Of a DNA stretch of 64,000 nt, positions 51,301-57,300 are shown in pieces (within the stretch, counting starts at the first letter, position 1; each line of letters opens with the position of its first letter). Position numbers: made by a program. The stretch comes from Escherichia coli. Its GTDB lineage: Bacteria; Pseudomonadota; Gammaproteobacteria; Enterobacterales; Enterobacteriaceae. The stretch lies in NCBI RefSeq assembly GCF_045037415.1, contig NZ_CP173438.1. One strand, written 5' to 3'.

Positions 51301-54300
51301 GGTTGGTGCCTTTCTGGTGATCTGTCTGGTGGTGACTCCCGGTGCAACAGCATGGTTGTTAACCGATCGTTTTCCCCGCCTGCTCATGATTGCTGTAACT
51401 ATTGGCAGTGTAACCAGTTTCCTCGGCGCGTGGGTCAGTTACTTTCTGGACGGCGCGACAGGTGGAATCATCGTGGTGGCGCAGACACTGCTGTTTCTTT
51501 TAGCATTTGTCTTTGCGCCCACCCATGGGCTTTTGGCAAATCGTCGGCGTGCGCATAAGGCGCTGGAGGATCGCTCATGATGGCATTATTACTGGAGCCA
51601 CTGCAGTTCACCTTTATGAGTCACGCACTGCTGATTTCACTGGTAGTTTCCATACCCTGTGCGCTGCTGTCGGTCTTTCTGGTCCTGAAAGGTTGGGCAC
51701 TGATGGGTGACGCGATGAGTCATGCGGTTTTTCCTGGCATCGTGCTTGCCTGGATTCTGGGGTTACCTTTGGCTACAGGGGCATTCGTCGCCGGAGTATT
51801 CTGTGCGGTGGCGACGGGATACCTGAAAGACAACAGCCGAATCAAGCAAGATACAGTGATGGGGATTGTTTTTTCTGGCATGTTTGCCGCAGGTCTGATC
51901 TTGTATATTGCAGTCAAACCAGACGTACATCTTGACCATATTCTTTTCGGCGACATGCTCGGGATAACCATCGGCGATATAATCCAGACGATGATTATTG
52001 CCGGGCTGGTTACACTTGTTATTAGCGTAAAATGGCGGGATTTTTTGCTGTTCAGCTTTGATTATCAACAGGCGCAGGTAAGCGGTTTGCATACGAGATG
52101 GCTGCATTATGGGCTGCTGTGCATGGTCTCTCTGACCATTGTGGCGACGCTGAAAGCGGTAGGTATCATTCTCTCCATTTCTCTGCTCATTGCGCCTGGC
52201 GCCATTGCGGTACTCCTGACACAACGCTTTCATATTGCGCTCCTACTGGCGACTGGCATATCGGTAATAGTGTCAATGACTGGTGTCTGGTTGTCCTTTT
52301 TTATCGACAGCGCACCAGCTCCGACGATTGTCGTCTTATTCGCGGTTTTGTTCATCATGACGTTTGCCGTTACCAGCATCAACGCACGCAAAAAGGGAAA
52401 CTCCCATACACAGGATCTGTTATCACCCAATTAGCACAACATCCGAGGACAGCAACACCCGATACTTTTTCCTGGCTTCCAGCAACGGGGTTTCTTCCTC
52501 CGTTGCATATACAGCTCACCTTTTTTCACCCACGATTAACCAACAGCCAGACCAGCAGACACGCCACCACCGGCACAGCAAAATCCATCAGGCTTGCCAC
52601 ATCCCAAGCTCGCGGATCAAAACCGCCCCACCACGGCATATTCATTCGCTTGCCATGCCCGAACATTTCAATCCAGCGATATTCTGCCTGGGTATGTTCA
52701 CGCGCAATGAAGAACGTACAACCGGCTATCGCTCCGTAAGCCCAGTTTCCGGTAAAAAGACCAACCAGTATCTGCGCAGCCACAGCACAAAGTGCATGAA
52801 GTAAGGGGCTTATATCCATTATTTCCTCCTTTCAGCTCCATTCCCGAAGCGGTGTTTCCAGCTCCACGACATAATCAGAGAATACAGAAACATCAAACAA
52901 GTCATCAAGAATGCGAATGTTGACAAAATAACCGTCATTCCGGACACAGACAGGTTCTCCCTCTTCTGTTACCCCTGTTTCTGTGTAGGTGAAACCAATT
53001 TCATCGACTAACAGTTTATTCTGGAGGTCTTCATCCTCCTCCCAGTCAAGAGATGACAGGAAGGATTTAAACTCTCTGTTACCAGGAAATTTCAAAGTTA
53101 AATCTTTCATACTGCCTCCTTGATTTGCCTGTCATTTAATTCTTTAAACCAGACTCTGAAATTTCTGATGTGTCCAAACAAATGACGCGTTCCTGCTGCG
53201 GTCTGCCCACCAAACCGGTACGATGTTGCTGTAACTCCAAATATTTTACCATTAAGGTTTGTTGTATAATTACCATTGCATATTGCATTTACTGATAAAT
53301 CAGATTTAGCTCTCACACCCACAATGAACCTTTCTCCATCTGAGGCAATTTGTGGCTGAACCATTCCTACGTTGGCGCTTATCTTTCCTGTTGCAACAAA
53401 CCCCAGCGATAAATAATTATCATCAATACTGTGCCCTCCAACATCAAATATCCTTGGCGCAACATTGGGCGGTGTACTCCAGTTCCTGCTTACTTCGCAC
53501 AATACCGTAAAAGGCCGTGTTGACAGGTTATTCTGCGATGGGATAGTAACTACATCACTTGCGCGTGTTGTTGGCATTGTAGTTACAATAAATGACGATG
53601 CCGTATTGCCCAGTTCAATTTGCGGCGTCGTCATGGTTAATGTTGAGTCATCATAGAATGTCTCATTACTTATTTTATTTGTCATATAAAAAGCACAGTT
53701 AACGGTATCAATGTCCGTATTAGCTGTATAAGTGGCCTCATAGTAGGTCCACTCGCCCTGTTGTTCAGCTTTGGCTGTTATAAGGGATGTATTACCGCTT
53801 ACTGTTGCGATCCGGGTATCCAGATCAAGATAAGAGTCAGCAGAGAAGGTATCTGTTCCACCAATAATAACTGAAACTCTTAACCTGCATCGTGCTTTAG
53901 CGCCTTTAACCCGGCACGAAAAAGTGAAACATTCACCACTTGCCAGCGGGAATCTGTCTGCTGCAACCACACCATGCACAGTATAGCCACCTGTTGTTCC
54001 CACTATACTTTCCGTGGGTGTCACCGTGGCATAATTGAACCCCTGTTTATCAGTGCCAAATGTTTTATTCAGTGCGGAATGAACAGTCCATGAGTCTGGT
54101 TTATTTGAGTTCCTCAGATAATTTGTCCTCTGTCCTTCAATCAATAAGCCATCGCGCTCAAATCGCGGTTCGTCAACTTCAGCAAGCTTGAGTTGGCCGG
54201 ACTTATTAATATACGTTGCTGTTGAAGCACGTTTAAACTTAACAATCTTGTCGCCTGGCATTGTTATTTCATCGTCACCAATAACTATCTTTTTATAAGA

Positions 54301-57300
54301 TGGCGAAAAACCCGTAATCATATCCAGTGAATCGTTAAACGGTATCCACACATCAGGCAGCGGCGGCACTATATTCGCACAGGGCTCTGCAGTCACTTCC
54401 GCTGCGGCTTCTGCGCGGTCTGCCGCCTTTTCAGCTCGTGTCGCTGCCGACAGAGCCTCATCCTTTTTCTGCCCGGCCTTTGTTGCGTCTGCTGCGGCCT
54501 CCCGCGCTTTTGTGGTGGCGACTCCGGCATTTTCAGCGGCTGACTCTGCATTACGGCGGGAAGCCTCTTCACTGTCTGCGGAGGCTTCTTCTGACGCACG
54601 GGCATTTGTCTCTGAACGTTCTGCCGCTGTTGCTGCGTTTTGTGCGGCTGTTTTTGAAGAAGCTGCCGCTTTCGCGCTGTTACCTGCATTCGTCTCTGAT
54701 GTTTTCGCCGCGTTCCTGGACGATGCCGCTGCTGTTTCTGATTTCTTTGCTGCCGCTGCGCTCTGAGAGGCGGCTTCAGCGTTGCGTGCCGCCTCTTCCA
54801 CCATCTTTTCAAAACGATACAGTGCCTCCGGACAAACATCATCTTCTGTTGCAGCGCCCAGAAAATCATTCAATGTCCCCGGCTTAGAATCCTCATACAC
54901 GGTGATGGTCCCGGCATGTGAAGGCGGAAAACCTTCAACCAGCAGGGCGACGCTGTACTGGCCATACTCAACATCCATGCTGTAACGTCCGGCTTCATCC
55001 GGATTTTCTGAGGCCACCGTGTTCACCACAACTGTGGTGCTGTTACGTTTTGCTTTGAGCTGAATGGTGCAGTTCTGTATCGGTTTTCCTGCACCGTCTT
55101 TCAGCACACCTGAAATCTGTACTGCCATATTCACTCCACAAATAAAAAAGGCACCATTTCTGGTGCCCGAATTTGGGTTTTAAAATTCAACTGATACTGA
55201 TGCCGGCTGTTGATTTCTTCATCACGACAACAAGAAGGTCGCTGATACTGGTCGTTGGCGTCCAGTTATTTGCACCATATGAAGAAACATTGAAAGTCAG
55301 GGTGACATGGCCGTGTCCGGCAGGCATATCAATGACTGATGAAAATACCCTGCTGACATCCGTCGCGGGTTGCTGAAAGATTTCCTGTCCGTTCTTCAGC
55401 ACCTGCAGCTTACAGGTTGAATACCAGTATGACTGTTGGTTGTTGCTGTTGAAGTTTTCATGCTTACCACCGCGAAACAGAACGGGGGGGACGACTATCT
55501 GACGGTCAAAAGCCTGGTCATCGTACACAGTGACCGTTATTGTACCGCTGGCATAACTGCCATTTCTCGGAAAGGCTTTTCCCACCGTTTTGACAATATC
55601 ACCTTCAATCTGGTTAGCTGACAGTTTTCCCAGAATCCGACAGTTCTGGTTAATCGTGACATTATTGAGCGTCCCGGAGTTCGCATTCACGTTACCGCTG
55701 ATATCCGCATTTCTCGCAGAAAGTCGACCATCAGGTGTCAGTGAAAACGTTGGGGGATTGCCACCGCTGGTAATGGTGGGAGCCGTCAGATATTTCAGGA
55801 ACACTTCGTTCATGAATATCTGATCGCCCTGCCCAACAAACATCGGCTTTGTATTGCCATTCGCAGGATTAATCATCGCAATCCTGTCCGCCGCCAGCAG
55901 CACCTGACTCTGCATACCGTCAGGGGTATTCTCAATACCGGCACCAATACCCGCGATATAAAGGCGTCCGTCCTGCATCTGCTGCAGCTTCACAGCCCAC
56001 ATGCTGTTCAGGTTATTATTTGTATCAACCTGAACCTTCTGTATCTGCTGGATCGCTGCACTCTGGTCTTCCAGTTTCTTATTGACGGTCTGCGTGATTT
56101 CATTGCTGACATCCGTAATGGACGTCCTGATTTCAGCCAGGTCAGGCGCAAGCTGACCGTTATCAATCTGCGTCCACAACTCCTGAGCCAGATGGGTTTT
56201 CCCTATCTCTCCTTTGAAAAAATCCAGATAGCCGGATGCATCATCACTCGGCTGGCCAACAGCCTCCACAAATGCCGATTTGCCAACGGTGTTCACACTG
56301 CGAATGTAAAAATAATAATCATGGCCCGGTTTGATATTGATACTGGCGGCTATCCAGTACAGCGCCGTACCAAGATAACGCGCGCTGGCTTCAACCTGCC
56401 TGATATCCGCAATCCGCTTTTCCGAGAACCAGAACTCAAACTGTACCGTCGGATCATAAACGGCAAGATGCGGCGTTGCGGTTATCTGAAAATAGCCCGG
56501 CGTCAGCTCAATCCGCGATGGCGCTGCCGGTGCGGCAATCCGGAACGATACCGACGCCGGATCCCCCTGCTGCCCCCACGCATTTACCGCCCGGACTGTC
56601 AGCCTGTAGTTCCCCAGCGCCAGTTGCCTGAAGCGGTATGTGGTTTCCGTCGTCCTGGCCGTGCTGACCAGCCGCTCACTGCCGTCATCCGCTGCCACGG
56701 TCAGGCGAAGCATAAAGCTCACCCCCTTCACCACCTTCGGTGTGTCCCATCGCGCCAGCACCTGATATTCCCCGCTGTCTGCGGTGACTTCTGCGGTCAG
56801 GTGCTGCACCGCGGGCGGCGTGACACCATTCACCGTGCCACTCTGTTCGCCGTCAAAGTGCGCCCCGTTATCCACGATGGTCTCTTTTTCCGGCACATGC
56901 TGCACGGCGGTGATGGCATACGTGCCGTCGTCGTTTTCACGGATACTCACGCAGCGGAACAGTCGCTGGCGCAGCGTCGGCAGCTTCAGCCCCCATACGC
57001 TGTATTCAGCAACACCGTCAGGAACACGGCTCACTTTCACCTTCACGCCGTCGGTGACGGACTGAACCTCCACGCTGACCGGATTGCCACTTCCGTCAAC
57101 CAGGCTTATCAGCGTGGTACCGGAGGATGGCAGCGTGATTTCACGGTCGAGCGTCAGCGTCCGGGTCTGGCTGTTCACCGCCAGCACACGACCACCGGTG
57201 CTGATACCGGCATAGTCATCATCGCAGATTTCAATGACATCCCCCGGTACATGGCGAAGCCCTTCAGCACCCACGCTGAAGTCCACGGTCTGCGTTTCCA

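Follow-up and report, generated by a model that had tools for sequence, protein, structure and literature searches.

In the 64,000-nucleotide (nt) stretch of Escherichia coli DNA analysed here (the window; contig NZ_CP173438.1 of assembly GCF_045037415.1), the side tail fibre gene stf of a lambdoid prophage ends in a tip that differs from that of lambda. Where a gene for the fibre chaperone Tfa would be expected, two small genes follow instead, one for an acidic protein of 92 amino acids (aa) and one for a 97-aa membrane protein. What kind of tip does this fibre carry, what became of tfa, and do the two small proteins act as an atypical chaperone pair, or in receptor masking or superinfection exclusion, as a first reading of the DNA (the sequence-only reading) had proposed? 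The answer that we consider probable is a lectin-tip cassette, with the 92-aa protein as its fibre accessory, followed by a separate 97-aa envelope protein. The functions given here to all three gene products are inferred.

Stf is a chimera with a lectin-type tip

The fibre genes form three co-oriented open reading frames (ORFs) on the minus strand, 3' of a lambda-like J gene (ORF listing of the window). All three lie where the sequence-only reading had placed them, and only the start of stf is corrected. The longer stf frame begins with GTG at 55134 and gives 675 aa; the true start is almost certainly ATG at 55128, giving 673 aa, because a Shine–Dalgarno (SD) sequence, GGAG, lies 5 nt upstream and the N-terminus MAVQISG matches MAVKISG of lambda Stf. 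The three genes and the parts of Stf are as follows.

53107–55128, minus strand: stf, side tail fibre gene, 673 aa, ortholog of phage 21 gp22; anchor and shaft are of lambda type, the tip is not
54736–55128, minus strand: N-terminal anchor of Stf (PF08400), which attaches the fibre to the tail tip; GC 51.8%
54370–54735, minus strand: Ala/Ser/Glu-rich shaft of low-complexity composition; GC 58.5%
53110–54369, minus strand: tip module, a conserved stem and two ConA/LamG-like beta-sandwich lectin domains; GC 42.9%
52832–53110, minus strand: gene for the 92-aa acidic protein, ortholog of phage 21 gp23, PHROG 1361; partner gene of the tip module; GC 41.9%
52526–52819, minus strand: gene for the 97-aa membrane protein with two hydrophobic helices, ortholog of phage 21 gp24, PHROG 1443; last gene of the receptor-binding cluster; GC 52.7%

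The lambda-Stf-like N-terminus is well supported. Residues 3–133 match PF08400 (E 2.8e-67; 225 bits against a cutoff of 26.6), the anchor retrieves the lambda tail fibre chain of PDB 9e7m (E 1.6e-49), and the N-terminus is 73–85% identical to lambda orf-401, with 85% against orf-401 residues 1–110. The shaft, which matches that of orf-401 weakly (53%), had been described as repetitive and Ala/Ser-rich; its composition, rich in Ala, Ser and Glu, agrees with this, but Tandem Repeats Finder detected no tandem repeat in its DNA. The last ~415 aa (~430 aa in the sequence-only reading) have no similarity to lambda orf-314, and BLASTP and tblastn searches against lambda stf/tfa DNA returned nothing better than E 1.6. 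Stf is thus a chimera, with the anchor and shaft of lambda Stf joined to a lectin-type module of low GC.

The suspected exchange of the receptor-binding module is borne out, and the incoming module can be named. It matches NCBIfam NF048003, 'GTA_spike_fiber' (65.7 bits against a cutoff of 36), it belongs to PHROG 1419 (E 2e-294), and a profile search leads to Rcc01080, the head spike fibre of the Rhodobacter capsulatus gene transfer agent (RcGTA; PDB 6tb9, E 8e-26). A stem at Stf residues ~276–335 is followed by lectin domains at residues ~335–515 and ~520–675. The AlphaFold2 model (mean predicted local distance difference test, pLDDT, 77) has two beta-sandwiches, with the N-terminal stem poorly modelled as a monomer, and its Foldseek matches are baseplate proteins of Pa193 and E217, pentraxin, CBM40 and the lectin-like domains of botulinum neurotoxin Hc. 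Across 60 distinct tip homologs, the stem (276–335), a middle block (496–555) and a C-terminal strand (636–675) are conserved, and the intervening segments, Stf 356–495 and 576–635, are variable, as would be expected of receptor-contacting surfaces. The tips of the window and of phage 21 are themselves different alleles, only 43% identical over 415 aa.

Rcc01080 binds capsule as a single flexible subunit (PMC7296036), and the tip module is, from its sequence, homologous to this monomeric, capsule-binding protein. By analogy with Rcc01080 and from the lectin folds, we presume that the tip would bind a surface polysaccharide, either O-antigen or capsule. The tip appears to be a globular lectin and not a trimeric needle of gp37 type, and so probably does without Tfa. 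PF13884 (Peptidase_S74, an intramolecular chaperone; hereafter S74) has no match in the Stf of the window and occurs in distal fibre genes of related loci.

Annotated copies of this gene call for some care. In NZ_CP023844.1 (locus L001 6708–8729, equivalent to window 53107–55128), RefSeq/PGAP splits an identical, intact stf into two pseudogene fragments, a 'phage head spike fiber domain-containing protein' and a 'prophage tail fiber N-terminal domain-containing protein'. We regard this call as an annotation artefact brought about by the chimeric architecture, and it should not be taken for decay. Real interruptions also occur. Insertion sequences break stf in otherwise identical copies, namely IS4 in Lambda_4B5 (LR595863.1) and ISEc52 in three chromosomes (E. 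coli 22184, Ecol_867 and isolateI), which indicates that the side fibre is dispensable or recurrently inactivated.

A relic of tfa marks a probable replacement

A trace of the gene expected after stf is still present in the window.

52447–52506, minus strand: relic of the tfa 3' end, 20 codons, ATEEETPLLEARKKYRVLLS; 16/20 identical to lambda Tfa 156–175 (tblastn against the window, E 4e-4)

The relic lies between the stop codon of the 97-aa gene and the end of sitD, which is the position expected for tfa, and phages 2G7b and ev243 have larger tfa fragments at the same relative place, 3' of the 97-aa gene. Apart from this non-coding relic, no Tfa-like sequence was found. The claim that no Tfa gene follows the fibre therefore stands, and the 92-aa protein, which has no Pfam or NCBIfam match and no BLAST similarity to lambda Tfa, is no piece of Tfa either. 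From the relic and the longer fragments in relatives, we conclude that a lambda-type stf 3' part and tfa were displaced by a block composed of the lectin module, the 92-aa gene, in some loci a distal fibre gene, and the 97-aa gene; in the mechanism that we propose, it is the lectin cassette that would have taken the place of the ancestral sequence. The sit operon probably truncated the tfa remnant later, on its other side.

The 92-aa gene is locked to the tip module

The 92-aa ORF is preceded by the ribosome-binding site AAGGAGG, and its start overlaps the stf stop codon (ATGA). Its product is very acidic (isoelectric point, pI, 4.05; 22 Asp or Glu residues), matches PHROG 1361 with E 1.6e-39 and is predicted with high confidence (AlphaFold2, pLDDT 94) to fold as an alpha/beta sandwich, for which neither PDB nor BFVD offered a functional structure match. 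Pfam, NCBIfam and PADLOC scans of this protein and of the 97-aa protein gave nothing meaningful.

The gene keeps constant company. tblastn detected homologs in 144 phage records; each of the 60 matches listed is found where an annotated fibre or tail gene has its 3' end, unless the record has no annotation. The 92-aa gene is abutted by a full-length tip-module homolog in 80/80 loci, a set made up of those public viral contigs and phage records that have sufficient upstream sequence; the junction is a 4-nt overlap in 71 of the 80 and is abutting without overlap in the other nine. The pairing is independent of the N-terminal anchor of the fibre, which may be of lambda, T5, T1 or Seuratvirus type, and it extends to virulent T1-, T5-, Seuratvirus- and Nonagvirus-type loci. 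A profile search of the whole library with the 92-aa protein found only 95 clusters. Among distant members, locus L092 keeps the same context, L090 has a 565-aa module protein followed by a 100-aa protein and then an S74 fibre, and L094 has two module proteins followed by a 98-aa protein and then a holin. A P1-like Leclercia plasmid carries two tandem pairs of a LamG/tip-module fibre gene and a 92-family gene; in this plasmid (L175/L176 886–5285) the pairs replace the S/U fibre genes after P1 gene R.

Composition and rates of change agree with this linkage. The tip module and the 92-aa gene are both low in GC (42.9% and 41.9%) compared with flanks of 52–58% (52.7% in the 97-aa gene and 52–58% in the 5' part of stf), which indicates that they form one exchanged cassette. 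The median ratio of nonsynonymous to synonymous substitution rates (dN/dS) of the 92-aa gene is 0.40 in loci without a distal fibre gene and 0.375 in loci with one, in keeping with purifying selection. Because the gene is kept, and equally constrained, where no distal gene follows, as in the window and in phage 21, the lectin module is most likely its primary partner. Divergence of the 92-aa protein tracks that of the stem, Stf 276–335 (Spearman 0.65), and not that of the variable lectin parts (0.17–0.21); this fits either contact or co-inheritance with the conserved scaffold.

The 92-aa gene is thus physically and evolutionarily locked to the tip module. Its translational coupling, its strict linkage across phage lifestyles and its constraint argue for a fibre accessory protein in place of Tfa, probably an assembly chaperone or a small structural subunit. 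In the reading that we favour, the protein would be made in step with the fibre through translational coupling and would act on the conserved stem, either as a dedicated folding and assembly factor or as a small component that remains part of the fibre. In loci where an S74-type distal fibre gene comes next, the protein may contribute to the joint.

Several apparent leads were set aside. A PhoR match in the family scans of the small proteins (0.037) was rejected as chance, and a telomerase protein match (0.088) from the search of PDB sequences with the 92-aa profile was also rejected. Giant PKD/TPR repeat proteins (P0180, P0185, P0187, P0188 and others) match in multiple stretches through an acidic strand motif resembling 'F.VNVRL.DDD', and were judged to be compositional or motif artefacts rather than homologs. 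Locus L161, which appeared to combine an identical tip with a third gene, was rejected because the '100%' was that of a short high-scoring segment pair.

The 97-aa gene closes receptor-binding clusters of temperate phages

The 97-aa ORF begins 12 nt past the stop codon of the 92-aa gene, behind an AAGGAGG SD sequence, and its product matches PHROG 1443 with E 2.4e-58. The family is large: clustering at 90% identity gives at least 1,456 clusters, none of which has a name or a Pfam domain. Most of the conservation falls in the loop R40–W72 (REHTQAEYRWI...G.R..MPWWGGFD.R.W), which is near-invariant from E. coli to Comamonas and Aeromonas; both hydrophobic helices vary, unlike the loop. The median dN/dS is 0.16. 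Both small genes are therefore conserved under purifying selection, and this answers the doubt, raised by the sequence-only reading against itself, that the 97-aa ORF might be untranslated and the 92-aa product a piece of Tfa.

Members of the family close receptor-binding clusters in lambda-, P22-, P2- and P1-like prophages and in prophages with a diversity-generating retroelement (DGR). They lie 3' of lambdoid fibre sets, of the P22-like tailspike in JEP4 (with an ATGA overlap and int next), of a P2-type fibre in Aeromonas salmonicida, of giant J proteins in Comamonas and of pectate-lyase/S74 tailspikes in Silvania and Desulfovibrio. In the Leclercia P1-like plasmid the gene comes after the LamG fibres and before lydA/lydB and darA. 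In phage phiHAP-1 the family member, gp19, stands between the fibre-assembly gene and the sheath gene, a position that we take to be that of Z/fun in the gene order of P2. Two further copies, in Pigmentiphaga (L206) and on an Ideonella plasmid (L181 5001–5594), lie between a putative DGR target gene, which would encode a variable receptor-binding protein, and avd/reverse transcriptase. The Ideonella copy is a fusion in which the 97-like domain (residues 1–95) precedes a separate DUF5658 membrane domain (residues 108–189); DUF5658 (PF18902) has no match in the 97-aa protein of the window. At the thresholds used, no 92-aa gene was detected beside the tailspike, P2-type fibre, DGR target or J copies of the family. 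The linkage to the tip, unbroken for the 92-aa gene, does not extend to the 97-family, which accompanies many unrelated receptor-binding genes.

The distribution of the family follows lifestyle. Among the loci examined, the 97-aa gene is absent from virulent phages that have the same fibre cassette. In phage HC6 (L179 3962–4121), an unannotated, frameshifted remnant that retains only the loop and second helix follows an 859-aa S74-type fibre gene, and similar remnants occur in ST1UNAM, ZCEC08 and PBM-2/3. Cellular relatives also exist. Four Aeromonas species (L004, L185, L188, L190 and L191) share a conserved non-phage chromosomal locus with the order pirin, 97-family gene, PA4780-type kinase and two genes for LpxM-type lipid A acyltransferases, the latter on the opposite strand. 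In the apparently chromosomal Leclercia loci a LysR regulator is the only annotated flanking gene, with none of the phage-tail genes of our panel nearby. A copy on a Novosphingobium plasmid (L182) sits among exopolysaccharide glycosyltransferase and CsgG-like genes. A link to lipopolysaccharide (LPS) through the RIO1-annotated Aeromonas neighbour was rejected, as the product of this gene is a kinase of the PA4780 family and not one for Kdo, and the gene is encoded, like the two LpxM genes, on the other strand. We take the Aeromonas and Novosphingobium neighbours as a weak hint of an envelope connection and do not rely on them.

A protein that stays near-invariant beside unrelated receptor-binding proteins is unlikely to be a specific chaperone or a receptor-specific mask, and the restriction to temperate phages together with the cellular homologs points to action on a conserved component of the host envelope. 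We therefore infer a host-envelope-directed function of temperate phages rather than one in fibre assembly. The protein would insert in the inner membrane, where its invariant loop may act on that conserved component. This would benefit temperate phages through superinfection exclusion or surface remodelling, which we consider the best analogy and a plausible one. Searches for known relatives were negative. By eye there is no lipobox, since the HALC at residues 8–11 lacks an n-region and consensus, and no PHROG, Pfam or PADLOC match places the protein in the Cor- or Llp-type families.

Alternative explanations for the two small genes

Several observations weigh against the reading favoured here. 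Many of the retrieved loci are redundant E. coli prophages, so that locus counts are not counts of independent events, and the literature search found no support for a function of either small protein. The correlation between 92-aa protein and stem could simply come from common ancestry of the backbone, within which the lectin part recombines as an insert. The temperate-only distribution of the 97-aa gene could likewise reflect the structure of the gene pool and not function. The topology of the 97-aa protein is ambiguous: TMHMM in the phage 21 record places both termini inside, while the Lys/Arg counts (5.7 in the loop, 0.2 in the N-tail and 0.7 in the C-tail) favour a cytoplasmic loop. Two further points, late coupling of the 97-aa gene and the frequent presence of a distal fibre gene after the 92-aa gene, carry the two strongest alternatives.

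In the first of these, the 97-aa protein is a late lytic factor tied to receptor-binding proteins or to lysis, for example a membrane factor for the maturation of fibres or tailspikes or a protein like a holin or antiholin, and its gene is not one that benefits the lysogen. Family members overlap or nearly abut late receptor-binding genes: ATGA overlaps occur in JEP4, the Aeromonas locus L173, phiHAP-1, L189, L201 and L202, and the window has its 12-nt gap and strong SD sequence. No sigma-70 promoter is predicted upstream of the 97-aa gene. Such coupling to late genes fits a late lytic role better than expression from the lysogen. The gene also adjoins lydA/lydB in the P1-like plasmid and putative holin-like ORFs in Comamonas, and two hydrophobic helices are found in class II holins as well. 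On the other hand, virulent phages assemble the same cassette without the gene, it has decayed in HC6, and the variety of receptor-binding proteins that precede it makes specific chaperoning unlikely. Conservation resides in the loop and not in the helices, the Aeromonas locus is chromosomal and non-phage, and neither Pfam nor PHROGs gives a match to a holin family; in the window the gene belongs to the tail operon, well away from the lysis genes, and phage 21 has its own pinholin and signal-arrest-release (SAR) endolysin system. We regard a late lytic role as possible, with the balance of evidence on the other side.

The second alternative is that the 92-aa protein is a structural connector, a hinge or adaptor that docks a distal fibre onto the lectin-type proximal fibre, with the copy in the window left over after loss of the distal gene. 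A distal fibre gene of S74 type (231–583 aa) begins 10–13 nt after the 92-aa gene in 8/8 virulent loci examined, and 53 of the 78 loci retrieved with the 97-aa protein have a third gene, for a distal fibre, between the 92-aa and 97-aa genes. The N-termini of the distal fibres are conserved (72% over 67 aa between IrisVonRoten and VogelGryff), and in the BASEL description gp24 of IrisVonRoten attaches to the proximal fibre and gp23, its 92-aa homolog, is unexplained. So often does a distal fibre gene follow that a connector role is as likely for the 92-aa protein as a chaperone role. The idea of a leftover copy fares less well, as the gene is intact and equally constrained without a distal gene, among others in the viable phage 21 and in some 55 of the loci retrieved. 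No further fibre gene comes after the last pair of tip-module and 92-family genes in the P1-like plasmid, and in L094 a holin gene comes next. This alternative as a whole seems to us rather unlikely.

A bolder proposal joins both families, and we hold it to be doubtful: the 97-family would be a new class of envelope effector of cellular origin and the 92-family a fold-novel chaperone or connector for the lectin-type lateral fibres of many model coliphages. The 97-family would derive by capture from a cellular gene, which Aeromonas and apparently Leclercia still have on the chromosome, and would have become the obligatory last gene of receptor-binding clusters in temperate sipho-, podo- and myoviruses. 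Its loop would target a conserved step at the inner membrane in the assembly of surface glycan or LPS, or else a generic step of DNA entry, and as a 'receptor-editing' companion it would stop the lysogen or late-infected cell from displaying or using the glycans that fibres and tailspikes recognise.

A further proposal of the sequence-only reading was that both small ORFs serve the fibre jointly, as an atypical pair of chaperones. In its favour, the two genes are neighbours in the same orientation, each with a strong ribosome-binding site, and their families form a trio with the tip module again in Comamonas, Pantoea, Chelativorans and the Leclercia P1-like plasmid. The genes are separable in both directions, however: virulent phages have the 92-aa gene without the 97-aa gene, and the 97-family occurs elsewhere without the 92-aa gene. 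The third gene is often inserted between them, GC steps from 41.9% to 52.7% across their boundary, and their breadth differs (95 against >1,400 clusters, in two different databases). We consider the pair very improbable. In the Chelativorans sp. prophage (L202 3493–5587) the apparent order is tip-module fibre, 97-family gene (ATGA overlap) and a weak 92-family-like ORF, so that the small genes are swapped relative to E. coli. Least credible of all is an unrelated hitch-hiking moron, for example a DNA-mimic anti-defence protein, which the acidity, small size and lack of a known fold match of the 92-aa protein would allow, but which its strict adjacency to and translational overlap with one fibre module across phage families and lifestyles, its position between two fibre genes in several phages and the lack of a PADLOC match contradict.

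Prophage identity and flanking genes

The fibre genes make up the distal part of the late tail operon in a lambdoid prophage that resembles phage 21 and is integrated at icd. This identification rests on gene order, which is the same as in the classical phage 21 (OL657228): J, gp22, gp23, gp24, sitDCBA, icd fragment, attP and int. The same comparison marks sitABCD as phage cargo. In the phage 21 record gp22 is annotated as 'side tail fiber', gp23 as 'hypothetical' and gp24 as 'putative membrane protein'. The flanking features of the fibre genes are as follows.

55187–58669, minus strand: J, central tail fibre/tip attachment protein; 83% identical to lambda J
55149–55168, minus strand: terminator-like hairpin and T-run between J and stf; a terminator is annotated at the same place in phage 21
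48985–52434, plus strand: sitABCD, iron/manganese ATP-binding cassette (ABC) transporter, convergent with the fibre genes; phage cargo, as in phage 21

The hairpin between J and stf would be read through by Q-antiterminated late transcripts. Phage 21 and many induced lambdoid phages also contain sitABCD, which implies that the operon travels with the phage by transduction. A 256-aa ORF of very low GC (47528–48298, minus strand; 34%) is located between sitA and the icd fragment; it is an ortholog of the hypothetical phage 21 gp31, for which PADLOC gave only a weak match (PDC-M13C, E 0.0034).

Window positions 52400–55200 are 100% identical to 12 phage records (the Lambda_ev series, 1H12 and PhiR47_2) and to 512 complete E. 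coli genomes, so the sequence itself was already known. What is new is the assignment of the tip to the GTA head-spike-fibre lectin family, the demonstration that the 92-aa gene is its constant partner, the recognition of the 97-family as a membrane protein gene that trails the receptor-binding genes of temperate phages and has cellular relatives, and the identification of the tfa relic as a scar of module replacement.

Comparison with known systems

Phage 21 is the closest relative. It has the same gene order with J upstream, sitDCBA downstream and attachment at icd, its 97-aa protein is 100% identical and its 92-aa protein 93.5% identical; it differs in the tip allele. The lambda system of Stf and Tfa (orf-401 with orf-314, and orf-194) shares with the window the PF08400 anchor, the Ala-rich shaft and the position after J, and the relic here is of its Tfa. 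The locus described here lacks an orf-314-like part, a functional tfa and lom, and has a tandem lectin tip instead of a Tfa-dependent one.

RcGTA Rcc01080 (GhsB; PDB 6TB9/6TBA) has a homologous lectin-type domain but carries it on capsid vertices, through an N-terminal Leu-Gly repeat. In the window the domain is placed at a tail fibre tip and is joined by a second LamG-like domain and by the 92-aa partner gene. We know of no 92-family partner reported for RcGTA.

The T5-like phage IrisVonRoten (Bas32) has a gp22 whose C-terminal module is 43% identical to the tip, followed by gp23, a 92-aa homolog (47% identical). Its gp22 module has been called 'galectin-like' (PMC11990801). IrisVonRoten and other BASEL siphoviruses differ from the prophage in being virulent, in having a T5-type anchor and a distal T-shaped S74 fibre after gp23, and in lacking the 97-aa gene. 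No paper in the literature searched gives the accessions, RAST names or PHROG ids of either small protein. The genome announcement of phage 21 gives no function for gp23 or gp24 (PMC9119081), the papers on LtfA/LtfB of DT57C describe S74 fibres without the tip module, and the small proteins of PMC12309495 come after J, not after a lateral fibre.

As with lambda Tfa, Mu gpU, P2 G and T4 gp38/gp57A, the gene for the 92-aa protein directly follows the fibre gene and is co-expressed with it. Compared with Tfa-type chaperones, the protein has no sequence or family match, is half the size of Tfa, has a different predicted fold without a PDB neighbour, and goes with a tip of lectin type, not with a trimeric needle. 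The 97-aa protein resembles T5 Llp, the Cor proteins of phi80, N15 and HK022, P2 Z/fun and HK97 gp15 as a small envelope protein encoded beside receptor-binding genes. It shares no homology with them and by eye has no lipoprotein signal. Llp and Cor each act on the one receptor that the neighbouring receptor-binding protein recognises, whereas the 97-family is near-invariant beside many unrelated ones.

Implications

The lectin-type fibre module and its 92-aa partner are carried by lambdoid prophages of hundreds of E. coli genomes, and virulent phages in wide use (T1-, T5-, Seuratvirus- and Dhillonvirus-like, including those of BASEL) have the same module and partner. If these fibres cannot be built or branched without the 92-aa protein, it must be transferred together with the tip in host-range engineering, and its family would be one of chaperones or connectors outside the Tfa and S74 paradigms. 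The 97-family is large, unnamed and strongly constrained, and it follows receptor-binding genes in all three tail types of temperate phages. This makes it a concrete candidate, and one that is cheap to study, either for a new role in exclusion or surface remodelling or for a role at the membrane at a late stage.

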